Source: an uncultured Candidatus Saccharibacteria bacterium
Lineage (GTDB): Bacteria > Patescibacteriota > Dojkabacteria > J137
Assembly (NCBI GenBank): GCA_964437465.1
Contig: CAYTGI010000001.1
Location: 5,614 to 69,613 of the forward strand
Length of the DNA stretch: 64,000 nt
Direction: 5' to 3'
In this document: positions 3,262-64,000 of the stretch, one piece after another
Position numbering within the stretch: the stretch's first letter is position 1
Layout of the letters: each line of letters begins with the position of its first letter
Made by a program: the position numbers and the translations under genes
Notes under the pieces: generated by a model
Databases searched by the model: none
Seen by the model: only the letters and a program-made list of their open reading frames with translations
What the model was told of the DNA's origin: nothing

Positions 3262-5190
3262 TTACTCTTTTTTATCCTTCTCTTCAATAACTTCCCCTTC
3301 TTCTACCGCTTCATTTTCTTCTTTTTTGGCTTCACTTTTTTCTTCAGTTTCTGGATTGTTTTCACCACCTTCAGCTTCATAAACTTTAGCTCCAACTTCT
3401 TGCATTATCTCCATTAGCTCATTAGAAAGAGTTTTTAACTTTTCCAAATCAGCATCGTCTTTTTCCAATTCATCTTTAATCTCTTTATTCTTATCTTCGA
3501 TTTTCTTCTTATTGTCGTCATCTATCTTTTCTGCATGATCTTTTAGAAGTTTTTCAGCTTGGAAAACATAACTATCAGCATCATTTCTTATTTTTAGTTT
3601 CTCCATCTCTTCCTTATCTTTACTTGCATTCTCTTCAGCTTCTTTTACTAATTTATCGATTTCCTCCTGTTCTAGTTGAGTAGAAGCAGTAATTGTAATC
3701 TCTTGTTCTTTTCCTGTTCCCTTGTCTTTTGCTTTAACATTTAAAATTCCATTCGCATCAATTTTAAAGATTACTTCGAATTGAGGTACACCTCTTGGAG
3801 CTGGTGGGATTCCATCTAATCTAAAAGTTCCTAATACTTTATTGTCCTTAGCTAAAGGTCTTTCTCCTTGAAGAACTTTTACATCAATTGCTGGTTGGTT
3901 ATCAACAGCTGTTGTAAATCTATCCTCAGACTTTTCTGCAGGAATTGTTGTATTTCTAGGGATTAGAACATGCATCTGACCAGCATTAACTTCTAATCCA
4001 AGAGACAACGGAGTAACGTCCAAAAGAGTAATATCATCTACATCAGTATCTCCAGCTAAAACAGCTCCTTGAAGGGCTGCTCCAACCGCAACAACTTCAT
4101 CAGGGTTAACTGAAATATTAGGCTCTTTTCCAAAAAATTCTTTTACCTTACTTTTAACTAAAGGCATTCTTGTCATACCTCCAACCATTACGATCTCATT
4201 TATCTCACCCTTCTCAATATCAGCATCCTTTAAAGCTTGTCTAACTGAATCGAATGTTTTATCTACAAGGTCAGAAACTAGTTTTTCAAAATCTGACTTC
4301 TTTAAAGTCATTCTGAAATGTTTAGGACCTTTTGCGTCAGCTGTAATGTACGGAAGATTAATCTCAGTTTGCTCAGAGTTAGAAAGCGCGATCTTAGCTT
4401 TCTCAGCTGCTTCTTTTAATCTTTGAAGTGCGGCAGGATCTTCTTTTAGATCAATTCCTTGCTCTTTTTTAAATTCTTCTACAAGATGATTGATTAGGGC
4501 CTGATCAAAGTCGTCTCCTCCAAGGTGAGTATCTCCTGAAGTAGATCTAACTTCATAAACTCCATCTCCAATTTCCAAAACAGAAACGTCAAAAGTTCCT
4601 CCTCCTAAATCGTAAACTATAATTGTTTGATCACCTGATTTTTCTAACCCGTAAGCAATAGCCGCTGCAGTAGGCTCGTTAATAATTCTTTTAACGTCTA
4701 ACCCAGCGATTTTTCCTGCATTTTTTGTAGCTTGTCTTTGAGCATCATCAAAGTAAGCAGGAACTGTAATTACTGCCCCTTCTACAGATTCTCCTAGAAA
4801 AGCTTCTGCATCAGCTTTAATTCTAGCTAGCACTTTAGCTGAAATTACTTCAGGAGCTACCCAATCTGAACCGAATTTGATCTCAACTCCTCCTTTCTTA
4901 CTTTCTCTAATTTCAAATGGTAGAAGATCAAGATCTTTTTTTACATCTTCATCAGTAAACTTTCGCCCGATAAGTCTTTTAATAGAGTAGAAAGTTTGTT
5001 CTGGATTAGTAACCATTTGGTTTTTAGCGGTTACTCCTACGATTTCTGATTTATTGTCTACGTCAATAGCAACAACAGAAGGCGTAGTTCTATTTCCTTC
5101 TTTGTTTGTAATAACCTCAGGTTTACCAGCTTGAACGAAAGCAAAGGCTGAATTTGTTGTACCTAGGTCAATTCCGATAATTTTCCCCAT
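3262..5190 (-). CDS. dnaK: Molecular chaperone DnaK (Hsp70)
   Basis: 642 aa; canonical Hsp70 motifs ([26 protein letters not shown]); acidic C-terminal tail. Confidence 0.97.
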
Positions 5191-5253
5191 GATATAAAAG
5201 TAATATTTATTTTAGTGCGTTTAAACGCAGTTTAATTACAAATTAACACCTAA

Positions 5254-5291
5254 ATATTACAACGCTAGCAGAAGTGAGTCAAGAGTGCTAA
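5254..5291 (-). promoter_or_regulatory. Candidate sigma70-type dnaK promoter overlapped by a half-conserved CIRCE (HrcA operator)-like inverted repeat
   Basis: Minus strand reads TTGACT, a 17-nt spacer, then TAATAT, about 60 nt upstream of the dnaK ATG. TTAGCACTC-N9-TTCTGCTAG overlaps the -35: left arm matches CIRCE perfectly, right arm 5/9, spacer exactly 9 nt. Confidence 0.45.
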
Positions 5292-5324
5292 TTCAATTGT
5301 TAATTATTAATTACTAATTGCTAA

Positions 5325-6245
5325 TTACTTACCAACAATAACTTTCGCGGCTTTTAAAATCCCATCTTTATCTTTATATTTGTAAGCTGAACTTATTACA
5401 GCTACAACTTTATTTTTCATCTCAGGATTAGGTATCGCCTGAATTGCTTCCATTTTTTCTTTATCGAATTCATCTCCAGGTTTTACTTCAATTGTTTCTA
5501 CCCCAGCATTTTTAGCCGTAGATTTCAGTTTTTCTCTCGCATTAGAAATAGATTCTTTAGCTCTGTCTAAATCTAATTCAGAATCGTCTAAAGCTAATCC
5601 TAAATCATCATTAATCTCTAAAAGTTCCTGAATAATCCCCATGTTAGCAATAGCTCCGAAAGTAGCCTTCTCCTGTTCAATTCGTTTCTTATAATTCTCA
5701 AAATCTGCCATTAGTTTTAATCTCTTATTTCTTTCTTCTTCAAACTGAACTTCTATGTACTTTTCTTTGGGCTCAGCATTTTCATCAATACTATTAACTA
5801 TCTCTGAGCTTAAAGGATTTTCTGGAATATAAATAATCACATCATCTCCCATTATTTCTAAAATCTCTTCTCCGTCACTAGATTTTTTAACTTCAGCAAT
5901 TCCTTCATTAACTAAATCCTCTTTAATCTTTAGATACCCAGTAACAGAATAGTCTGGAGCACCTACTTGTTCTTTTCCATCTTCTGGCTTTCTAATTTTA
6001 ATTAGGTTAACCGGTCCATCTACAGTTGCTAATTCATCATCTAAAATATATGTTATGCCTGATGAATCTTCCTTATAAACTTTTCCTAAATTGTCAGCCT
6101 CTTCATTGTACTGATCGTATTCTTTATTTGATTGACAGAATACAGCTACATAATCAAGGCTTGTCTCTAAACTAGATAATTTTTCTTCTCGTAAGATTTG
6201 AGCTTTTTCTACTATTTCTTTTATTCTAGGTACTAATGGTTTCAT
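5325..6245 (-). CDS. grpE: Nucleotide exchange factor GrpE with a long N-terminal extension
   Basis: C-terminal GrpE motifs (ADFENYKKRIEQE ... KAAKVIVGK); directly upstream of dnaK on the same strand. Confidence 0.85.
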   Translation of the reverse strand: MKPLVPRIKEIVEKAQILREEKLSSLETSLDYVAVFCQSNKEYDQYNEEADNLGKVYKEDSSGITYILDDELATVDGPVNLIKIRKPEDGKEQVGAPDYSVTGYLKIKEDLVNEGIAEVKKSSDGEEILEIMGDDVIIYIPENPLSSEIVNSIDENAEPKEKYIEVQFEEERNKRLKLMADFENYKKRIEQEKATFGAIANMGIIQELLEINDDLGLALDDSELDLDRAKESISNAREKLKSTAKNAGVETIEVKPGDEFDKEKMEAIQAIPNPEMKNKVVAVISSAYKYKDKDGILKAAKVIVGK

Positions 6246-6791: not shown

Positions 6792-7859
6792 ATGGTAGAA
6801 GTAGTAAAACACATAGAAACAACTATAGATAGTAATCTTAAAAAACTTGAACAAGATATTTATGATTTAGGTATAGATGCAAGTCCGCTTTCTAATTTCA
6901 TTGATTCTAAAATATTTTGTGATTTTAACGATCTCTCAAAACAAGGAATAATATCAATGTTGAGAACAGGTTTAGAAAAAGGGAGTATTAAAGAAGTCAT
7001 GGATGTTATTTTTAATCCTCAAGAACCAAGTCAAGAGAGGTTAGAAATCTATAAGAGAAGGCATAGGGAAATTTATGAGCAGAGAGCTATTGAGCTGGCT
7101 GACATGATAATTGATGGACATGAAACTGTCATTTTAAGAAGTGGAATGTACGGTGGAAAATCTACCTTGGCTACAGCTACTGAGAAAGAATTGAAAAAAA
7201 GGGGATTTACTTCCTCCGTTCTTATAGCAGGTATTTTGGGAGATGATTTTACTACTGCTAGAGCTTACGAAGCTGATGAAGGAGTTTTGCCAGCAGAAAT
7301 GGTTTTACCAGATACGATTGAAAACATTAAGTTTAAGATTCTAGAAGATAGAGGAGATAACGAAAATCATGTTGTGTATTTTGATGAATTTTCGTTTGTA
7401 GATGAAGGGACTGTTAGAGAAATAGTGAATTTTTGTAGTGAGGAAGGTATTAAATTAATTATGGCAGGTTTAGATGCTGATTATCTAGGTCGTGAACTTC
7501 CTACGATGTCTAGGTTTCGTAAGGAATGCACTCATGTTGAAGAGTGTTTTTCTTTTACGATGAATATGGATTATGACTCAGTTGAAAATGGTGAACCTAT
7601 AGGAACACATACAGCTAGATATGTGCGTCTTCCAGAAGGTGGCTATGTGTTAGATGTAGCGAGTCTTCCTCTAGAAGTTTCGAAAGAAAAACCATACATA
7701 CTTTATATTCCTGTAGCAAAGCAACATCATATATCGGGTATTCTTGAAGGGCATCCAGTTCTTGAATGGATAAATTCATATCCAGAGTTTATACCACAGG
7801 AAAGAATGCAACGAGTTTTTCAATTTAATTTGGAGTTACCCTATCAAGAAGTGGCTTAA
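6792..7859 (+). CDS. Thymidine kinase-like protein with an N-terminal extension of about 110 aa
   Basis: TK motifs from about residue 110: P-loop SGMYGGKSTLA, YFDEFSFV (compare IDEAQFF), MAGLDADYLGRELP (compare AGLD.DFRGEPF); C-terminal Cys ribbon is degenerate. Confidence 0.55.
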   Translation: MVEVVKHIETTIDSNLKKLEQDIYDLGIDASPLSNFIDSKIFCDFNDLSKQGIISMLRTGLEKGSIKEVMDVIFNPQEPSQERLEIYKRRHREIYEQRAIELADMIIDGHETVILRSGMYGGKSTLATATEKELKKRGFTSSVLIAGILGDDFTTARAYEADEGVLPAEMVLPDTIENIKFKILEDRGDNENHVVYFDEFSFVDEGTVREIVNFCSEEGIKLIMAGLDADYLGRELPTMSRFRKECTHVEECFSFTMNMDYDSVENGEPIGTHTARYVRLPEGGYVLDVASLPLEVSKEKPYILYIPVAKQHHISGILEGHPVLEWINSYPEFIPQERMQRVFQFNLELPYQEVA

Positions 7860-23472: not shown

Positions 23473-24336
23473 ATGAAGCACACTGGGCAAGAGTTAATCC
23501 AAAAAGCATACGAAATAAGAAAAGACATAATTGATATGTTGTTGGAAGCTGGCTCTGGACATTCAGCTGGACCTTTAGGAATGGCTGATATATTCACTGC
23601 TTTGTATTTTGAAGTATTAAATCATGATCCAAATAATCCAGGAATGCCAGAACGTGACAAAGTAGTTTTATCAAATGGTCATATTTGTCCAGTTTGGTAC
23701 GCTACACTTGCACATGCAGGGTACTTTCCAAGAGAAGAGCTAATGACTTTAAGAAAGATTGATTCACGATTACAAGGTCATCCAAATAGATTAGATACTC
23801 CAGGTGTTGAAAATTCTAGTGGTCCATTAGGACAAGGTTTTTCACAAGCGATAGGTATGGCATTAGCTGATATGTTAGAAGGTAGAAAATCAACAACCTA
23901 CGTTTTACTTGGAGATGGAGAATTAAACGAGGGTCAGTGTTGGGAGGCGTTTATGTTTGCTGGTAATTATCCACTGCACCATTTAACCGCAATTATAGAT
24001 AGAAATAATATTCAAATTGATGGTCATACAGAAAATGTTATGAGATTGGAGCCACTAAAAGAAAAAATTGAATCATTTAATTGGCACGTTTTAGAAATTG
24101 ATGGACATAATATGGAAGCGATTGTTGATGCTTGCAATCATGCTAAATCAGTTTGGGAAAGGCCTACAGCAATTATCGCGAATACAATTCCTGGAAAAGG
24201 TGTTGATTTTATGGAATGGAAACCTGAGTGGCATGGAAAACCACCAAAAGAAGACGAAGCAGAAGAAGCAGATAAGGAATTACTTGATACATTAAATTAT
24301 TTAAGAACATTGAGAGGGAATATTGAGTTTGAATAA
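23473..24336 (+). CDS. Transketolase, N-terminal (ThDP-binding) subunit
   Basis: GHSAGPLGMADIF and GDGELNEGQCWEA motifs. The ORF track starts at 23449 inside the palindrome; the ATG at 23473 (MKHTGQE...) is more plausible. Confidence 0.85.
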   Translation: MKHTGQELIQKAYEIRKDIIDMLLEAGSGHSAGPLGMADIFTALYFEVLNHDPNNPGMPERDKVVLSNGHICPVWYATLAHAGYFPREELMTLRKIDSRLQGHPNRLDTPGVENSSGPLGQGFSQAIGMALADMLEGRKSTTYVLLGDGELNEGQCWEAFMFAGNYPLHHLTAIIDRNNIQIDGHTENVMRLEPLKEKIESFNWHVLEIDGHNMEAIVDACNHAKSVWERPTAIIANTIPGKGVDFMEWKPEWHGKPPKEDEAEEADKELLDTLNYLRTLRGNIEFE

Positions 24337-24343
24337 CTCAATT

Positions 24344-24377
24344 TCCTCCCCCACCCCATCCTGCTAGGAGGGGAGCT
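24344..24377. repeat. GC-rich palindromic repeat unit (core CCTGCTAGGAGGGG)
   Basis: cctcccccaccccatcctgctaggaggggagc, a GC island in an AT-rich intergenic region; same family as the units at 26755 and 27241. Confidence 0.6.
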
Positions 24378-26725: not shown

Positions 26726-26754
26726 AGTCTATAAGATTCCAACGAAGCTAATAG

Positions 26755-26830
26755 TCTACCTCCCCTAACCCCTCCTGCTAGGAGGGGGAAGTTGAGTTTC
26801 CTCCCCTAGCAGGGGAGGACTAAGGTGGGG
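26755..26830. repeat. Cluster of GC-rich palindromic repeat units; the first 36 bp form a direct repeat with 27241-27276
   Basis: tctacctcccctaacccctcctgctaggaggggga ... cctcccctagcaggggagg ... taaggtgggg. Confidence 0.65.
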
Positions 26831-26880: not shown

Positions 26881-27267
26881 ATGATTCCTTATTACAATAA
26901 AAGTAAACTGAATTTCTCCAAGAAAAAGAGGAAAGATGAAACCTATGCTGAAATGAAACTTTGGTCAGAATTAAAAGGAAAAAAATTACTGGGATATAAA
27001 TTTAGAAGACAATATGTAATAGATAAATACATAGTTGATTTTTATTGTATTGAACTAAAATTAATTATTGAGGTAGATGGGGCAAGTCATGATGAAGAAA
27101 AGTATGAGTATGATAAGAAAAGAGAAAATGAACTAAGAAGGTTAGGGAACACAGTATTAAGATTTACTGAATATGAAGTTAGGAGTGATATTGATAATGT
27201 TTTGGAAACTATTGTTTATTTAATAGAAAAGTTTGAACAATCTACCTCCCCTAACCCCTCCTGCTAG
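26881..27267 (+). CDS. DUF559-type (Vsr-like endonuclease fold) small protein
   Basis: 128 aa; YKFRRQYVIDKYIVDFYC...IEVDGASHDE...RENELRRLGNTVLRF; its last 8 codons (STSPNPSC) are encoded by the GC-rich repeat. Confidence 0.65.
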   Translation: MIPYYNKSKLNFSKKKRKDETYAEMKLWSELKGKKLLGYKFRRQYVIDKYIVDFYCIELKLIIEVDGASHDEEKYEYDKKRENELRRLGNTVLRFTEYEVRSDIDNVLETIVYLIEKFEQSTSPNPSC

Positions 27268-27395
27268 GAGGGGGACATGACTTTCATTAAATTACTCCCC
27301 TGCTAGGGAGGAAATATACTCACTTTATAAGTTCATGTTCAAATTGCTAGGAGGGGAAGCAATAATCTACCGAATACTCTCCTGCTAGAAGGGGG
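27241..27395. repeat. Cluster of four GC-rich palindromic repeat units; first 36 bp identical to 26755-26790
   Basis: cccctcctgctaggaggggg; ctcccctgctagggagg; ttgctaggagggg; ctcctgctagaaggggg. Confidence 0.65.
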
Positions 27396-27484
27396 ACGTA
27401 ATGTAGTCTAGTACTTTCTTAATAAATCCTTGTAAACTATCTCTATCCTCTTTAGAATGAAAATATATTATTAAAAATCTTCTT

Positions 27485-56274: not shown

Positions 56275-57603
56275 ATGTTTGGATTAATAGGATTTTGGTT
56301 GTTTCTTAACTTTCATAGAGATAGTATTTTTCCGCTCAGCCAATCTTCTAGCCAAATTTTGATTGCTATTTATTCTGCTTTTGGATTCTTATTGTTACTA
56401 TTTTTTTTCGTAATCTCTAGGAACTCAACATTAAATTTTGATATATCTAAAAAGTATCAAACGATTTTATTACAAAGTTTTCTTTGGTTAAATTTTTTAA
56501 TTCTTGAATTTTCTATTTACAGATTATGGCAAGCGGAGAGTGAACTGATTCATACTGACAAGTTTTATATTGTCTCTGTAATTCTATTTATTTTAACAAT
56601 ATTATCCTCTATAGTAGTTTCTAATACATCAAGGCTTGGAAGGGTCCGAACAATATATTCTTTTCTATTTTTGGCTTCATTAATGAGCATTTCTATAATG
56701 TATCTAGTACCCGCGTCCGCTAAGCTCGGAGATTTAATTCCTATCATTAATGAAATGATCAGCTCTTTATTTAACGGTGAAAATATTTATCAATATTACT
56801 TGCTAGATAATGGAGTAGCTACTCAAGCTGTTCGGCAGCCTGGCAATATCTTATTCTATATACCATTTCAACTATTAGGTATTGATATAAGGTTTGCAAA
56901 TATATTTTATTTCTCACTAACAATATTTTTATTAGTTAATATTTACCAAAAAGAGATTCAACATAATTTTGTTGGTTACTTTAGTATACTTTTATTAATT
57001 TTCTTCCCATATAGAATTTTTAGAACAGATCTATACGATGTACCATATTGGTTTATATTTGTTCTATTTATATATTTTTTTAAAAGAAAAAAAGATTTAA
57101 TAGCTCCTATAGTCTGGGGTTTCAGTATTTTTACTCAGGTTTGGAGCTGGATTTTCACACCAATACTTTTTATTTACTTATATAAAAAAAGAGGAATTAA
57201 AAATACAGCAAGATTCATAGCTATTTCAGGGATTACAGCTTTAGTATTATTCCTACCGTTTGTATTTAATAATATAGATAATTACTACGAGCATGTTTTT
57301 GGTTTTTACAATAGCTCAAGAGAAGCAGGAATAGAATTTGGTTCTAGCATCCACTTAAGTCAAGTCATACAGTTTTTATTAGATTCAAGCATTTTCCCTT
57401 TTCTACAGTTGTTTCAAATGCTAACAATTTTCATTATATTTTTGTTCTTAAAAAAAAATTTACCGAACCTTTTATTTAGTCTAGGGTTAGCTTTTTTTGC
57501 ATTTATGAGTCTAAATACTCATACTTGGCCATATATGTACTTGCTCATTTTCTTGGCTATGATTTTTATTATATTTGAAGAAGGAAGGAGATCTAACACT
57601 TAA
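56275..57603 (+). CDS. Polytopic membrane protein (about 12 TM helices), GT-C-like glycosyltransferase or DUF2029-like candidate
   Basis: 442 aa dominated by hydrophobic helices; identification is by topology only. Confidence 0.4.
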   Translation: MFGLIGFWLFLNFHRDSIFPLSQSSSQILIAIYSAFGFLLLLFFFVISRNSTLNFDISKKYQTILLQSFLWLNFLILEFSIYRLWQAESELIHTDKFYIVSVILFILTILSSIVVSNTSRLGRVRTIYSFLFLASLMSISIMYLVPASAKLGDLIPIINEMISSLFNGENIYQYYLLDNGVATQAVRQPGNILFYIPFQLLGIDIRFANIFYFSLTIFLLVNIYQKEIQHNFVGYFSILLLIFFPYRIFRTDLYDVPYWFIFVLFIYFFKRKKDLIAPIVWGFSIFTQVWSWIFTPILFIYLYKKRGIKNTARFIAISGITALVLFLPFVFNNIDNYYEHVFGFYNSSREAGIEFGSSIHLSQVIQFLLDSSIFPFLQLFQMLTIFIIFLFLKKNLPNLLFSLGLAFFAFMSLNTHTWPYMYLLIFLAMIFIIFEEGRRSNT

Positions 57604-57726: not shown

Positions 57727-57755
57727 TTGACTTCGTAATTTCACATTCATATACT
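57727..57755 (+). promoter_or_regulatory. Sigma70-type promoter for the pilin gene
   Basis: TTGACT, a 17-nt spacer, then TATACT, about 40 nt upstream of the pilin ATG. Confidence 0.5.
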
Positions 57756-57796: not shown

Positions 57797-58288
57797 ATGA
57801 ATAACCATGAGGAAAATAACAACAAGGAAGGATTCACATTGATTGAGATCCTAGTTGTAGTTGCTTTGATTGCGATCTTAGCAACAATTACATTCATCGC
57901 TATTAATCCAGCGAGAAACTTTAGAGATACAAGAAATGCACAGAGAAGTTCAGATGTGTTGCAGATTTTAAATGCTGTTACTCAGTACACTTCAGAGCAA
58001 GGAAACGATCTTGACTCTCTTGCTGTAGCTTCAACTACTGTTTGGGGAACAGGATTAACTGCACTTCCACTATGTTCAGCAACTCCTGCGCCAATCGGAA
58101 CCACAGCTGATGTTTCTGTAGATATCTCTGCTGTATTAGTTCCTGATTACATTGTAGGTATTCCATCTGATCCTTCTGTAACAACTGCACCAGGAAATAC
58201 TGGATATACAATCTGTGAAGAAGCTAGTGGTAGAGTAACTGTTGCAGCACCAAATGCTGAATCAACAACTATTTCTGTTTCTAGATAA
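57797..58288 (+). CDS. Type IV pilin (prepilin with class III signal peptide)
   Basis: Leader MNNHEENNNKEG, then FTLIEILVVVALIAILA (G|F cleavage site, Glu at +5). Confidence 0.85.
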   Translation: MNNHEENNNKEGFTLIEILVVVALIAILATITFIAINPARNFRDTRNAQRSSDVLQILNAVTQYTSEQGNDLDSLAVASTTVWGTGLTALPLCSATPAPIGTTADVSVDISAVLVPDYIVGIPSDPSVTTAPGNTGYTICEEASGRVTVAAPNAESTTISVSR

Positions 58289-58362
58289 TGTTGCAAATTA
58301 GCTCCTATTTTTTTAAACTGAAAAGTAGGAGTTTATTTTAATTAATATATAAAATTACTGTT

Positions 58363-58827
58363 ATGGAAAATAACAAACAAACGAAAAAAGGATTCACATT
58401 GATTGAGATCCTAGTTGTAGTTGCTTTGATTGCGATCTTAGCAACAATTACATTCATCGCTATTAATCCAGCGAGAAACTTTAGAGATACAAGAAATGCA
58501 CAGAGAAGTTCAGATGTGTTGCAGATTTTAAATGCTGTTACTCAGTATACTTCTCAACAGGGAAATAGTTTAGATGGATTAGCAACTGCTATCGGGGTTG
58601 TTGGCGGAAGCTTTACAGACTGTGGTTCTGGAACTGATGACATTGGAACTGGTGATGCAGATCTAGCTGCAGCGTTAGTACCTGACTTTATAGTTGGGAT
58701 ACCTCAGGATCCAGACGGAGCAAGTACAGCAGTAGATACATTATATGATATCTGCGAAGAAGCAAGCGGTAGAGTTACAATTTCTGCACCTTCTGCTGAA
58801 TCTACAACAATTACTGTTTCTAGATAA
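58363..58827 (+). CDS. Type IV pilin, tandem paralogue
   Basis: Leader MENNKQTKKG, then FTLIEIL...; about 160 bp (58389-58547) are nucleotide-identical to 57829-57987. Confidence 0.85.
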   Translation: MENNKQTKKGFTLIEILVVVALIAILATITFIAINPARNFRDTRNAQRSSDVLQILNAVTQYTSQQGNSLDGLATAIGVVGGSFTDCGSGTDDIGTGDADLAAALVPDFIVGIPQDPDGASTAVDTLYDICEEASGRVTISAPSAESTTITVSR

Positions 58828-58848
58828 GGAATTAAAATAAAAATAAAA

Positions 58849-58875
58849 GGGCCTCAGAATTGAGGTCTTTTTTTA
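58849..58875 (+). terminator. Rho-independent terminator after the second pilin gene
   Basis: Hairpin ggcctca-gaat-tgaggtc followed by a T7 tract. Confidence 0.6.
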
Positions 58876-58893: not shown

Positions 58894-60156
58894 ATGGCAA
58901 AGAAGTCTTTAAACACATCAATAGATGGGAACAATACTAATGAATCCACACTTTCAGCAGGAAAACAATCCACAGAAGAAAAAGGTATAACAGGTATGCT
59001 TAATGATATTGTATTAACAGCTCTTAATAAAAGAGCTTCAGATATTCATATCGAACCTCACGAGAACTCTGTTGTTGTAAGATACAGAATCGATGGAATT
59101 TTAAAAGACATATACACAATTGAAAAAAAATATGAGGAAACTTTAGTCTTTAAGATTAAAGTTAACGCTAAGCTGAGAACAGACGAACACTTTGCACCTC
59201 AAGATGGAAGAATATCTTTTAATTTTGAAGATAAGTTAGATACTAGAATATCAATTCTTCCAACAGCAAAAGGAGAAAAAGTAGTAATTAGGTTGTTAAC
59301 TCAGAAAGGAAGATCTTTTACTCTTAAAGATCTTGGATTTAAAGAAAAAGAGTATGAGATTGTTCAGAAAGCATTTAAAAAACCATATGGATCTATTTTT
59401 GCTTCTGGTCCGACTGGATCTGGTAAAACTACAACACTTTATTCAATTCTGCAGACTTTAAATTCTCGAGATATAAATATTACTACTGTTGAAGATCCTG
59501 TAGAGTATGAAATTGACGGAGTAAACCATGTTCAAGTAAATAAAAAAGCTGGTTTAACATTTAGTAATGGTCTTAGGTCTATTTTAAGACAGGATCCCAA
59601 TGTAGTTATGATTGGAGAGATTCGTGATTCAGAGACTGCAAAAATTGCAACAAACGCAGCAATGACTGGACACTTAGTATTATCAACTATTCACACTAAC
59701 GATGCAGTTACTACGATTCCAAGGCTTATTGATATGGGTGTAGAACCTTATCTTGTAGCTACAACTGTTAACGTAGTTATTGCTCAAAGACTTGCAAGAA
59801 AAATTGATGAACAGTACAGGTCAGAAACTAAATTATCACAGGAAGAATATGACGAACTTAAAATCTATAGACCTGACCTTGCTTCATACTTAAAGGTTGG
59901 TGAAACATTATATGTTCCTAACGTTCCAGAAGGATCAGTAGATAGTGGTTATAAAGGGAGAATTGGTTTGTATGAAGTATTAGAAATAAATGAGCCAATA
60001 AGAAAAATAATAATGGCTGGAGCTGACACAGACCAAATCTTTACACAGGCTAGAAAGCAAGGATTAAAGTTAATTGTAGAGGACGGTGTCGAGAAGTTAA
60101 GAGCGGGTGTTATTTCATTATCAGAGCTTGTAAGAGTTACAGCGTTAAAAGAATAA
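58894..60156 (+). CDS. pilB: Type IV pilus assembly ATPase PilB/GspE
   Basis: Walker A GPTGSGKTTT, Walker B VMIGEIRD, and a GspE N-terminal domain. Confidence 0.9.
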   Translation: MAKKSLNTSIDGNNTNESTLSAGKQSTEEKGITGMLNDIVLTALNKRASDIHIEPHENSVVVRYRIDGILKDIYTIEKKYEETLVFKIKVNAKLRTDEHFAPQDGRISFNFEDKLDTRISILPTAKGEKVVIRLLTQKGRSFTLKDLGFKEKEYEIVQKAFKKPYGSIFASGPTGSGKTTTLYSILQTLNSRDINITTVEDPVEYEIDGVNHVQVNKKAGLTFSNGLRSILRQDPNVVMIGEIRDSETAKIATNAAMTGHLVLSTIHTNDAVTTIPRLIDMGVEPYLVATTVNVVIAQRLARKIDEQYRSETKLSQEEYDELKIYRPDLASYLKVGETLYVPNVPEGSVDSGYKGRIGLYEVLEINEPIRKIIMAGADTDQIFTQARKQGLKLIVEDGVEKLRAGVISLSELVRVTALKE

Positions 60157-60157
60157 T

Positions 60158-61444
60158 ATGGAACAACCAAGTTTTTCACAAACCATGAAAACTGATCTTG
60201 ATGCTTCAGTTAATAATCAACCCCAACCTCAACAGCAGATTCAAGAACCACAACAAGTACAAGCACAACCTCAACAACAACCTGAAGCTCCTGTTCAACA
60301 AGAACAATCATCAGCTATTGCTCCTTCAAATGGGGACTTGGCAGTTCCAAAAAGACGTAGAAAGAAAAAAAAGAAGAAAAAAGGAGGGCAAGTTTATTTT
60401 TCTGGAATATCTAAGCTTATAATTCTAGTTTCAATTAGAAATCTTTACTTAATGCTCAAATCTGGGTTAGCGCTTAATGAGGCAGTAAGAACATTAACTG
60501 AACAAACTCCAGATGAAAGGCTAGCAAGAATATATGATGAGATAGCGAATAAAATAGACGAGGGAATGACTTTAGCAGAATCAATGAGACTTTATCCAAA
60601 AGCATTTTCAGACATCATAGTTTCAGTTGTTTCAGTTGGTGAACAGGGAGGAACTTTGGAGAAAAATCTTTTGTTTCTCGCTGATTATTTAAAAAAGGCT
60701 CATACATTAGGTAAGAAGATCCAAGGAGCATTAATCTATCCAGCAATTGTGTTTTTAATGACATTTGTTGAAATGCTTGGAGTAATTTTCTTGATTTTAC
60801 CTAAGCTTGAAGAACTGTTCTCTTCATTTGATGATGTACCATCAATGACAAAAACTATTTTAGCTGGGTCTCAGTTTATTAGAGAAAATGCAATTTTCCT
60901 AGCTGGAGGCTTAGTAGTATTTATATTTTTATTTACAATGTTTCTGAGGACAAAAGCTGGAAAAAGATTTAAGGATATAGTCAGCATAAATATTCCGGTT
61001 ATAAAAAAATTAACCAAGTTTAATTTACTCGCCTCATTTTCCAGAACGTTAAGTATTTTATTAGAAACAGGTATTCCTTTGGTAAATGCTCTTGATATTG
61101 CAACAAGTACTGTTAGTAATACTATTTATAGAAATATCCTTGAAAAAGTAGCTGCTGATGTAAAAAGTGGTAGAAGTTTAGCTGATTCACTTTCTGATTA
61201 TGAAAAATACTTTCCACCAACGTTTGTAAAACTTATTGAAGTTGGTGAAAGCACGGGTACTTTAGAAGAGAATCTAGCATATTTATATGATTATCATGCT
61301 GAAGAGGTTGAGGAGATGTCCAATAATTTATCTACTTTGCTGGAACCATTGTTACTGATTGTGATTGGTGGAATGATTGGGCTTCTTGCAATTATTATCG
61401 TTGGACCTATATACCAATTAACTGGAAGTATTAACACAGTATGA
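60158..61444 (+). CDS. pilC: Type IV pilus platform protein PilC (two T2SS-F domains) with a Q/P-rich N-terminal extension and a poly-Lys tract
   Basis: Two GspF-like repeats each followed by TM helices; N-terminal QPQPQQQIQEPQQVQAQPQQQ and KRRRKKKKKKKG. Confidence 0.85.
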   Translation: MEQPSFSQTMKTDLDASVNNQPQPQQQIQEPQQVQAQPQQQPEAPVQQEQSSAIAPSNGDLAVPKRRRKKKKKKKGGQVYFSGISKLIILVSIRNLYLMLKSGLALNEAVRTLTEQTPDERLARIYDEIANKIDEGMTLAESMRLYPKAFSDIIVSVVSVGEQGGTLEKNLLFLADYLKKAHTLGKKIQGALIYPAIVFLMTFVEMLGVIFLILPKLEELFSSFDDVPSMTKTILAGSQFIRENAIFLAGGLVVFIFLFTMFLRTKAGKRFKDIVSINIPVIKKLTKFNLLASFSRTLSILLETGIPLVNALDIATSTVSNTIYRNILEKVAADVKSGRSLADSLSDYEKYFPPTFVKLIEVGESTGTLEENLAYLYDYHAEEVEEMSNNLSTLLEPLLLIVIGGMIGLLAIIIVGPIYQLTGSINTV

Positions 61445-61884
61445 AAAAGGCATATACTTTACTGGAATTACTTCTTGTTTTAACTCTTTTTTCATCAGTA
61501 TCAGCAATTGTAGTTCCCTTTACAATTCGACAAATTTCACAAGGTAATGTAGAGAGTGAGGCAGATAAGGTTAGGTCAGCAATATTTCTAACTCAACAAA
61601 ACGCATATACAGGTAGAAATTCCTCAGATTATGGTATTAAATTTAATAGTGATAGTTACGAAATATATGAAGGAGCCAGTTATGCTGGAGCATTGAACAT
61701 TGATGTAGAAAATTTGCCGTCCTCTGTACAGTTTACAGCAGTTAATCTTGGTGATCTTGGAGATGAGGTTCATTTTAGCTTAGGATCAGTCATACCTTCT
61801 ACAGATGGAGTTTTAACAATATCAGACGGGACAAGTACGAATACAATAACTATAACTAGTCAAGGATCAATTTTAATTCAATGA
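61441..61884 (+). CDS. Minor pilin / pseudopilin-like protein
   Basis: N-terminal MKKAYTLLELLLVLTLF with a Glu at +5 relative to the presumed cleavage site. Confidence 0.55.
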   Translation: MKKAYTLLELLLVLTLFSSVSAIVVPFTIRQISQGNVESEADKVRSAIFLTQQNAYTGRNSSDYGIKFNSDSYEIYEGASYAGALNIDVENLPSSVQFTAVNLGDLGDEVHFSLGSVIPSTDGVLTISDGTSTNTITITSQGSILIQ

Positions 61885-63809
61885 TAGATACAAAGGTTAA
61901 AAAAGCATTTTCACTGGTTGAAATTCTACTAGCTTTAGGAATCTTCCTAATTGTTTTTGCTACTGTTGGTTTATTTGCCGTTGATTCAATTAGAAATGCT
62001 AGAAGTAATAGGGAGAGGTTTTATGCATCAATTGGAATAAACGAAATGAGCAAAGCCTTAGAAATTATGGCTCGTGAAAATTGGGCAGAGATTTTCAATA
62101 GTCCAACAGGAACTCAACTCTATCCTCAATTTAGTAGCGGTGAATACACTCTTGAAGTAGGGACTTATGATAATGGTGGAGTAACGATATATCTTGAATT
62201 AGATGATGTTTATAGAGATGGAGCAACTGGTAATATTGTAATCACTGGAGGAGTTTTGGATCCAAGATCTAAAGAGATTAATTTTACAGCGCAGTGGACA
62301 GACGTAGTTGGTGCAATTCAGACTGTTAACTCAACTGGATATATTAATGATTGGCATACATTTACATGGGAACAAACTTTAGAAAGTGAGTTTTTAAATG
62401 GAAATACAACTGACTCTTTTGTAGTTAATAATGATGATGGAGAAATTCAGCTTGCCTCACAGGTTTATGCAGATTGGTGTTCTCCTGAGTTAGGAGTTAA
62501 CACATTTGATTTACCTGGAAATGGAATATCGAAATCTATCTCTGCAATACCTGGAGTTGCTCATGTTGGGACTAATCAAGGTTCTGGCATTTCATATTCT
62601 AATATTTTAATTTCTGATGATGATCCCCCACTAATAACAATTCCTGATACATTCACTGGCTATAACGTTGTAAGTGTGCATGGAGACGAAAACTATGCTT
62701 ATCTAGCTACAACAAATGATAGTAAAGAGGTTGTTATTTTAGACATTTCAAGTACCCCTTTTACAGAGGTTGGTCACGTAAATCTATCTGGAAGTAGAGA
62801 TGCAGTAAGTATCTTTGTTAATAACGATATTGGATATGTAACTCAACATGAGACTTTATATACTTTTGATTTATCTTCTAAGACTGGAAGTAGACCTATT
62901 ATTGATTCTCATAGTCTTTTTAGAAGAGGATCTTTTATGCATGTTAGGGATGATTATGCGTATATTTTAATTGCTGGAGCTGTTGAAGAACTTGAAATTA
63001 TAGACCTTTCAAATCCAAATAATCTTCAAACTGTTGGTTTTGCTAACGTTAATGCCGGAGTAGCAGTTAAAGCTATAACAGTAAACGAGGCACAGACAAG
63101 AGCATATATCGGGGCTAATGCCTCAAGTCAATACAACGAAATTTTTGTTTTAGATATTGAGGAAAAAACAGGAGAAAGGCCTATAATTGGAAGTTTTGAC
63201 ACTAATGGGATGAATGTTACAGATTTAATTGTAGTACAAGATGATACAATTGTAATTTCTGTAGGTACAAATTCTCAAGAATATCAGGTTGTTGATATTT
63301 CTGATGAGGCAAATCCTACATATTGTGGAGGATTAGAATTTAATACAGGGTTAAATGGGATTGCTGGTGCAGTATTTTCAGATACAGGTAATAGATATGT
63401 GTATGTTGTTTCAAATGATCCAAGTGAGGAACTGAAAGTTATTAGAGGTGGCTTAGCAGGATCAGGAGGATTTATCGGTGAGGGTTATGTACCTGAAGGA
63501 ACTTTTGATTCTGAGATTTTTGATACAGGGGTTTCAAATCCTTATTATTATGTTTTAAGCTGGGATGAGACTGTTCCTGGGACTACAAATGTCAGATTTC
63601 AACTTAGGTCTAGTGATGATCCTGGAATGAGCGGGGCAACATGGGTAGGTCCTGATGGAACTAGTGGAACATATTTTGAGATGCCTGAAGGAGATCCTAT
63701 TCCTGGAGTGTTACAAAACAATAGATATTTACAGTACAGAGCATACCTACAATCTGATGCTGCGAATACACCCTTTTTAAATTCTGTAATAATAAACTAT
63801 CAAAGATGA
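61881..63809 (+). CDS. Pilin-like protein with a C-terminal LVIVD-repeat beta-propeller (candidate pilus-associated adhesin)
   Basis: N-terminal KKAFSLVEILLALGIF (Glu at +5); four or more repeats of the form ..YAY(L/I)A.....(L/V).(I/V)(L/I)D(I/L)S(D/N)P. Confidence 0.6.
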   Translation: MIDTKVKKAFSLVEILLALGIFLIVFATVGLFAVDSIRNARSNRERFYASIGINEMSKALEIMARENWAEIFNSPTGTQLYPQFSSGEYTLEVGTYDNGGVTIYLELDDVYRDGATGNIVITGGVLDPRSKEINFTAQWTDVVGAIQTVNSTGYINDWHTFTWEQTLESEFLNGNTTDSFVVNNDDGEIQLASQVYADWCSPELGVNTFDLPGNGISKSISAIPGVAHVGTNQGSGISYSNILISDDDPPLITIPDTFTGYNVVSVHGDENYAYLATTNDSKEVVILDISSTPFTEVGHVNLSGSRDAVSIFVNNDIGYVTQHETLYTFDLSSKTGSRPIIDSHSLFRRGSFMHVRDDYAYILIAGAVEELEIIDLSNPNNLQTVGFANVNAGVAVKAITVNEAQTRAYIGANASSQYNEIFVLDIEEKTGERPIIGSFDTNGMNVTDLIVVQDDTIVISVGTNSQEYQVVDISDEANPTYCGGLEFNTGLNGIAGAVFSDTGNRYVYVVSNDPSEELKVIRGGLAGSGGFIGEGYVPEGTFDSEIFDTGVSNPYYYVLSWDETVPGTTNVRFQLRSSDDPGMSGATWVGPDGTSGTYFEMPEGDPIPGVLQNNRYLQYRAYLQSDAANTPFLNSVIINYQR

Positions 63810-64000
63810 TGAAAGGATATAGAAAAGCAATTACATTAATTGAGACTGTGATTTACTTGGCGTTAATTGGGTCTGCATTTTTTTTAATAGTTAATTTTGG
63901 ATTTACAATAGCGGACTTTAATAGAGATGCTGGCGTGAATAATGAGATTCAACAAAGTTTAGTTTTTTTGAATCAGCATTTTGAAGAACATATTGAACTT
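63806..64000 (+). CDS. Minor pilin-like protein (partial; continues past the window end)
   Basis: MMKGYRKAITLIETVIYLALIGSAFF with a Glu at +5; start overlaps the previous stop (ATGA). Confidence 0.5.
   Translation, partial: MMKGYRKAITLIETVIYLALIGSAFFLIVNFGFTIADFNRDAGVNNEIQQSLVFLNQHFEEHIEL

Follow-up and report, generated by a model that had tools for sequence, protein, structure and literature searches.

Two complete tandem genes for type IV major pilins, here called A and B, lie in the window, i.e. the whole stretch of 64 kb of DNA analysed, and share an exact direct repeat of 160 nt that encodes the alpha1 helix. A and B are old tandem paralogues, and their identity over 160 nt very probably goes back to a recent, non-reciprocal intrachromosomal gene conversion. 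What was found is a further example of something already known, namely concerted evolution affecting one segment of tandem paralogues, from a lineage that has been little studied; it is nothing out of the ordinary for adjacent paralogues that undergo homologous recombination.

Results

Two tandem pilin genes head a type IV pilus locus

Pilin A (57797–58288, forward strand) is a prepilin of 163 amino acids and pilin B (58363–58827, forward strand) one of 154 amino acids. Each is encoded by a complete open reading frame and matches PF07963 with a score of 34 bits (34.3 bits for B; Pfam cut-off: 21.2). Both carry a class III signal, in which a short charged leader ending in Gly-1 is followed by Phe+1, Glu+5 and the hydrophobic N-terminal part of alpha1 (MNNHEENNNKEG followed by FTLIEILVVVALIAILATITFIA in A, MENNKQTKKG followed by FTLIE... 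in B; the mature sequence begins with FTLIE in either case). The complete reading frames, the PF07963 matches and the class III signals bear out the preliminary description of this region as a pair of tandem major-pilin genes. Both proteins conform to the lollipop fold, in which alpha1 forms a long helix that lies against an antiparallel beta-sheet, and the globular domain contains a pair of cysteines (C93 and C140) that is invariant in 36 homologues and may close a putative disulfide-bonded loop.

The two pilins are approximately 68–70% identical overall and 57% identical in the globular domain, which also differs by indels, in agreement with the divergence of the central globular regions reported earlier. 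Their leaders (MNNHEENNNKE in A, MENNKQTKK in B) and their alpha-beta loops, which lie outside the repeated tract, are unrelated in sequence. The N-terminal 53 residues are almost invariant across all Dojkabacteria pilins. Both A and B formed singleton clusters from one NCBI contig. They belong to a member of Candidatus Dojkabacteria (WS6), a lineage within CPR/Patescibacteria that also supplied their closest named homologues, and the GC content of the window is 32%. No further members of the A/B clade came up when the globular domain of B was used in a second protein search.

The pilins stand at the head of a cluster with the gene order pilA-pilA-pilB-pilC-minor pilins, all on the forward strand. 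Directly downstream of them are the genes for a PilB-type assembly ATPase (58894–60156; PF00437 T2SSE, E = 2e-118) and a PilC-type platform protein (60158–61444; PF00482 T2SSF with two repeats, E = 1e-51). These are followed by a minor-pilin-like gene (61441–61884; KKAYTLLELL..., class III signal motif, weak PF07963 match with E = 1e-3), a gene for a large pilin-like protein of 642 amino acids with an LVIVD repeat (61881–63809; class III signal motif, PF08309 LVIVD, weak PF07963 match), and the first part of a third minor-pilin-like gene, which continues past the end of the window (63806–64000; motif MMKGYRKAITLIE, weak tblastn match). No gene for a prepilin peptidase was detected in the examined part of the window; in the syntenic genome L002, a Peptidase_A24 gene is located approximately 5.6 kb downstream of the pilin, and the equivalent place lies beyond the end of the window. 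The 642-amino-acid protein, with its class III signal and LVIVD repeat, is conserved downstream of pilC in the related loci L001, L084 and L087, and its sequence makes it a candidate large minor pilin of the tip-adhesin type. PilC starts with an unusual Gln/Pro-rich N-terminal extension of approximately 75 amino acids (60158–60390, forward strand) that ends in KRRRKKKKKKKGG, and the DNA encoding this extension includes an A8 run at 60364–60371.

Upstream of pilin A, the window has a promoter-like site, TTGACT-17-TATACT (57727–57755, forward strand; sigma-70-like, 10 of 12 consensus positions). The same block is conserved 5' of the first pilin gene in L001 and L002, and it probably acts as the promoter. 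A terminator-like hairpin with a U-rich tail separates A from B (58300–58333, forward strand; terminator scan; RNA fold of −17.8 kcal/mol, z = −4.7) and would function as a terminator; an intrinsic-terminator-like hairpin with a T-run follows B (58845–58872, forward strand; terminator scan; fold of −16.1 kcal/mol, z = −4.9). Directly 5' of pilin A, an open reading frame for a polytopic membrane protein of 442 amino acids (56275–57603, forward strand) had no Pfam match even at E = 0.1. It is missing at the syntenic position of L002, where the tRNA-Ser gene is followed almost directly by the pilin. Pfam searches with this and the other neighbouring proteins revealed nothing relevant to pilin modification or recombination.

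An exact direct repeat covers the alpha1-coding segment

Base-by-base match extension delimited an exact direct repeat of 160 nt on the forward strand, the copies of which, at 57828–57987 (the proposed conversion tract) and 58388–58547, are spaced by 560 nt from start to start. This is the longest repeat of any kind within the 64-kb window. The repeat search scored the same pair as 178 nt with 97% identity, and a 35-mer taken from the repeat occurred at only 2 sites in the window (0 expected in shuffles). Nucleotide identity had been reported for 57829–57987 and 58389–58547; this is true, and the full exact run extends one base further upstream. The first difference, previously placed at 57987/58547, is in fact found one base later, as a C/T mismatch at 57988/58548 that changes a Tyr codon silently from TAC to TAT. 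It is followed by 5 further identical bases, after which the sequences diverge.

Both copies are in frame within the complete reading frames of A and B. At the protein level, the repeat extends from the last base of codon −2 over Gly-1 and the whole alpha1 helix to approximately mature residue 53 (GFTLIEILVVVALIAILATITFIAINPARNFRDTRNAQRSSDVLQILNAVTQY), and the tract ends no more than six bases beyond mature residue 53. In the metagenome contig collection, no match was found to an exact 32-mer taken from the repeat. A second and much weaker repeat (58117–58288 versus 58656–58827, 71% identity) corresponds to the similar C-termini of the two pilins (ICEEASGRVTVAAPNAESTTISVSR and ICEEASGRVTISAPSAESTTITVSR); the C-terminal similarity that had been pointed out before was thus confirmed, although it amounts to only approximately 71% identity in nucleotides. 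Elsewhere in the window, a GC-rich element of 40 nt with the palindromic core CCCCTCCTGCTAGGAGGGG occurs four times (24336–24375, 26750–26789, 27236–27275 and 27357–27396) and may, by its sequence, be a shared terminator or a REP-like intergenic repeat.

Silent divergence collapses within the tract

Synonymous and non-synonymous divergence between A and B was estimated by the Nei-Gojobori method. Over the 55 codons of alpha1, dS was 0.05 (two silent differences) and dN was 0, compared to a dS of approximately 1.2 and a dN of 0.41 over 90 codons of the remaining gene sequence; in the conserved C-terminus (30 codons), dS was 0.70 and dN was 0.18. Among codons that specify the same amino acid in A and B, 2 of 55 differed silently in alpha1 versus 26 of 50 elsewhere (Fisher p = 8e-9). 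This contrast in silent differences inside and outside the tract indicates that the gene bodies are old and that the 5' segment is young. The identity had originally been attributed to either recent duplication or gene conversion. The local collapse of silent divergence argues for conversion, and the dS of approximately 1.2 outside alpha1 speaks against recent duplication.

A relative with the same tandem pair dates the duplication

The closest long-contig relative, L001 (Logan SRR33375180), also has the tandem pair, likewise located 5' of pilB and pilC. Its first gene displays the A-type insertions (STTxW...LTAxPxC; TADxSVD) and its second gene the B-type pattern (GVxGGxF..C; IGxxDAxL), and the alpha1 segments of the two differ at 46 of 165 nt and 11 of 55 amino acids. 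As L001 possesses orthologous A and B genes with differing alpha1, the duplication predates the split between L001 and the window, and homogenisation occurred later, in the lineage of the window only. The window pilins, L001-A and L002 have an identical alpha1 protein of 55 residues, yet 18–24 of the 55 codons differ. The alpha1 DNA of the window shows 19 nt differences from L001-A and 47 from L001-B; since it is closest to L001-A and far from L001-B, A is favoured as the donor. Support for this direction is modest, as it derives from one comparison in which L001-B could simply be fast-evolving.

Located 5' of its tandem pilins, L001 also encodes two extra paralogues (3368–3916 and 3937–4482) with a pilin-type globular domain. 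They are 55% identical to residues 36–163 of pilin A, including the RNAQRSSDV..ILNAVT helix and the Cys pair, and have an ordinary N-terminal membrane segment in place of the Gly-1/FTLIE class III signal. Judged by these features, they could be membrane-anchored pilin-head proteins.

A single pilin gene is present in L002 and L003

L002 (GCA_964635995.1) and L003 have one pilin gene, and the region upstream of it is syntenic with the window (OGG glycosylase, HTH_25, tRNA-Ser). In L002, the single gene is preceded by the conserved promoter block of the A type and encodes a leader similar to that of A (MNKNEEKNKEG, compared to MNNHEENNNKEG). Its globular domain shows the B-type indels, which pilin B also has in common with the L001 gene at 5211–5687, and is 73% identical to that of B and 67–68% identical to A-type domains. 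In a neighbour-joining tree of PilB and PilC, the window, L001 and L002 formed a trichotomy, with window and L002 grouped at 50% bootstrap. The single gene of L002 corresponds to the predicted product of a deletion between the 5' repeats or, equally, to an ancestral single gene; in the latter case, the upstream copy (A) would have diverged after duplication. The reading frames of pilB and pilC in L002 (6533–8907; likewise in L003) are interrupted by in-frame stops (EQ*KKE, KLR*GV) and, near 7243, by a frameshift; either the pilus machinery has been pseudogenised or the assembly is error-prone. Because of this frameshift and these stops, L002 is a poor functional reference.

Pilin arrays of Dojkabacteria vary in copy number and show sporadic tracts of probable conversion

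We surveyed 42 non-redundant Dojkabacteria pilin loci obtained from same-contig matches, a genome scan, and a degenerate alpha1 pattern applied to metagenomes. The degenerate pattern yielded 44 Dojkabacteria loci, none of them a close relative of the window, and the genome scan, performed with the pilin alignment and generic patterns, yielded 80 loci of which 2 were from Dojkabacteria among the matches listed. The number of major-pilin genes was one in 35 of the 42 loci (many of these on short contigs), two in 5 and three in 2. These loci comprise 11 paralogue pairs. Silent differences affected 1 of 53 alpha1 codons in the window pair, compared to 13–29 of the 40–53 codons compared in each of the other 10 pairs, the alpha1 proteins of which are identical at 40–53 of 53 residues. 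As a background, the longest exact match between neighbouring pilin genes of other phyla was 20 nt (161 pairs, among the matches listed).

Shorter exact tracts were detected in three further arrays: 74 nt in alpha1 of L084 (5025–6081; permutation p = 3.5e-4), 52 nt in L087 (3966–4948; p = 0.003), and 67 nt in the C-terminal part of the minus-strand pair of L120. These shorter tracts suggest that patchy gene conversion is recurrent in the tandem pilin arrays of Dojkabacteria. The tract in the window is the longest and the most recent seen among the arrays surveyed. Comparison of pilin loci for copy number and mosaicism, as recommended in the preliminary description, thus revealed one to three copies and tracts of shorter length, while a repeat like that of the window was lacking in the 10 other pairs.

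No element of a known pilin-variation system was found in the window

The repeat had also been proposed to be a substrate for pilin or antigenic variation, and silent pilin cassettes had been suggested as something to look for. Using A and B as tblastn queries, we found no silent or truncated pilin cassette within the 64-kb window; the only matches were both complete genes and a weak one to a minor pilin. The G3+N1-7 x4 motif was absent from both strands of the whole window, inverted repeats of at least 35 nt were absent from the window, and Pfam revealed no recombinase domain among the neighbours from 49.6 to 63.8 kb. With silent cassettes, G4 motif, inverted repeats and recombinase all missing from these regions, the proposal is unsupported. 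We rejected a cassette system of the Neisseria type, as the window contains neither silent cassettes nor a G4 motif and it is the constant region that A and B share. Inversion of the Piv type was rejected as well, because the repeats are direct, the window lacks inverted repeats of 35 nt or longer, and no recombinase domain was detected from 49.6 to 63.8 kb.

Discussion

We propose that the alpha1-coding segment of one paralogue, from Gly-1 to approximately mature residue 53, was copied onto the other by homologous recombination, most likely from A onto B. The tract would be confined to alpha1 because strong purifying selection on the protein keeps only the alpha1 DNA similar enough for a heteroduplex, and it would end where similarity collapses, at the leader on one side and at the alpha-beta loop on the other. 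The mapped ends fit these expected limits of conversion. Such an event would have changed at most a few residues and left both of the distinct, surface-exposed globular domains intact, so that the cell would still encode two pilins that differ in their surfaces but have the same helix in the filament core. As a by-product, it would have created direct repeats that may serve as a substrate for RecA-type deletion or amplification, and the deletion product would be a single gene consisting of the promoter and leader of A and the body of B.

Several other histories could produce identical 5' segments. A partial re-duplication by which B received a new 5' end would lead to the same result and is indistinguishable from conversion. 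The possibility that an assembler or a consensus step homogenised or mis-joined the two 5' segments deserves consideration, as the source is a contig of a metagenome-assembled genome with a singleton NCBI record, and as an exact repeat of 160 nt exceeds typical assembly k-mers and approaches short-read length, a region where assemblers struggle. We nevertheless regard an artefact of assembly or polishing as very unlikely: the tandem architecture, with its distinct leaders, intergenic hairpin and downstream regions, was recovered independently in L001 from a different data set, sequences that are approximately 25% divergent (the level between A and B of L001) are not normally rewritten to identity by assemblers, and both reading frames are intact and in frame, with tract ends that coincide with the biological limits of homology. 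A recent duplication of the whole gene, with the globular domain then diversifying very rapidly under selection before alpha1 had diverged, is highly improbable. The near invariance of the N-terminal 53 residues in Dojkabacteria pilins means that zero non-synonymous change in alpha1 is expected anyway, but positive selection does not explain the saturation of silent sites outside the tract (dS approximately 1.2; 0.7 in the conserved C-terminus), A differs from B in its leader and in the sequence upstream of it, and each of the two has its own orthologue in L001. The silent-site contrast and the orthologous pair of L001 refute a recent whole-gene duplication. Selection at the nucleotide level, e.g. 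on an mRNA structure or a regulatory element in the 5' coding region, could in principle keep the copies identical, and the tract does begin near the translation start; nothing more specific speaks for this explanation, which we consider scarcely credible. It does not account for the identity, since orthologues with identical alpha1 protein differ at 18–24 of 55 codons, and the other tandem pairs also differ at 13–29 alpha1 codons.

A further reading concedes recombination and assigns it a purpose: the repeats would be a programmed switch, in which RecA-dependent deletion fuses the promoter and leader of A to the body of B, and unequal exchange amplifies or rebuilds the arrays. If this were true, episymbiont subclones would carry different pilus surfaces and so differ in their specificity for hosts or phages. 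The single pilin of L002 and L003, with A-type promoter, A-like leader and B-type domain, is exactly the predicted deletion product. The terminator-like hairpin separates A from B, so that deletion would alter the expression of B; copy number ranges from 1 to 3 among Dojkabacteria, and the patchy conversion in L084, L087 and L120 would be traces left by such switching. However, the trichotomy of window, L001 and L002 with its bootstrap of 50%, together with an L002 domain about equally near to A-type and B-type domains (67–73%), implies that the single copy may be ancestral. Since the two copies are in direct orientation, the sole outcomes of recombining them are deletion and amplification. 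The predicted products are a deletion with the leader of A and the body of B, the mature protein of which is B, or a triplication; neither yields a new mature sequence, and deletion is irreversible. Silent cassettes, G4 motif, inverted repeats and site-specific recombinase are missing from the window or the neighbours examined, and 10 other paralogue pairs are without such repeats, so that the repeat does not count among the conserved features of the pilin system. A programmed switch therefore appears unlikely, and gene conversion between old paralogues remains our preferred explanation.

Concerted evolution of tandem bacterial paralogues by patchy gene conversion is exemplified by the tuf genes. 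In such cases, as in the pilin pair, paralogues that have otherwise diverged contain a tract of nucleotide identity whose limits are those of the stretch that was most similar beforehand, and we see no essential difference between the two. In Moraxella bovis and Moraxella lacunata, Q and I pilins alternate by inversion of a DNA segment catalysed by the invertase Piv. That system likewise combines two alternative pilin bodies with one common constant N-terminal coding segment, whereas the copies in the window are direct, each with its own 5' segment, and have no inverted repeat or recombinase nearby. Antigenic variation of Neisseria pilE/pilS, which proceeds by gene conversion (PMC4534519, PMC4023411), is comparable in other respects. 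As in the event proposed for the window, DNA passes there from one pilin paralogue to another without reciprocity, by transfer of the RecA type. The donors in Neisseria are silent promoterless cassettes without the 5' constant region, it is the variable 3' part that is transferred, and a G4-forming element upstream of pilE is needed. In the window, by contrast, both genes are complete, the constant 5' region was probably the part transferred, the variable parts stay distinct, and neither a G4 motif nor a silent copy is present. The identical tract is the constant alpha1, and the variable regions, with a dS of approximately 1.2 and a dN of 0.41, are not what was exchanged, unlike in variation of the pilE/pilS type.

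Streptococcus sanguinis has two tandem major pilins, PilE1 and PilE2, that form a heteropolymeric type IV pilus; they co-polymerise stochastically, and either alone supports piliation (PMC6497953, PMC10628169). The window similarly has two tandem major-pilin genes with identical mature N-termini in a pil locus. PilE1 and PilE2 are 78% identical overall, compared to approximately 68–70% overall and 57% in the globular domain for A and B. The likeness is one at the protein level. Co-assembly is demonstrated for PilE1 and PilE2 and conjectural for A and B, which by analogy could co-polymerise or else be used alternately. Either use depends on the identity of the alpha1 protein, which is present in all Dojkabacteria pilins regardless of conversion.

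Type IV pili are enriched across CPR (PMC6744442), and in cultivated Saccharibacteria they function in host binding, competition and twitching (PMC9894109, PMC11623550). The locus described here resembles the latter as a type IV pilus system of a CPR lineage with several pilin genes. It belongs to a different class-level lineage, however, and the papers on Saccharibacteria describe two separate pilus systems rather than tandem paralogues with a common 5' tract (PMC9894109, PMC11623550). By analogy with the cultivated Saccharibacteria, host binding, competition and twitching may be roles of CPR type IV pili more generally.

Type IV pili are thought to be central to the attachment of CPR/Patescibacteria to their hosts and to life on them (PMC6744442, PMC9894109, PMC11623550), and the evolution of major pilins therefore matters for host specificity. 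The locus provides a clean and datable case, in which an old tandem pair with distinct surface domains has had its filament-core helix recently homogenised in DNA. Recurring arrays of two to three major pilins with sporadic conversion tracts make the hypotheses of heteropolymeric pili and of copy-number switching testable.
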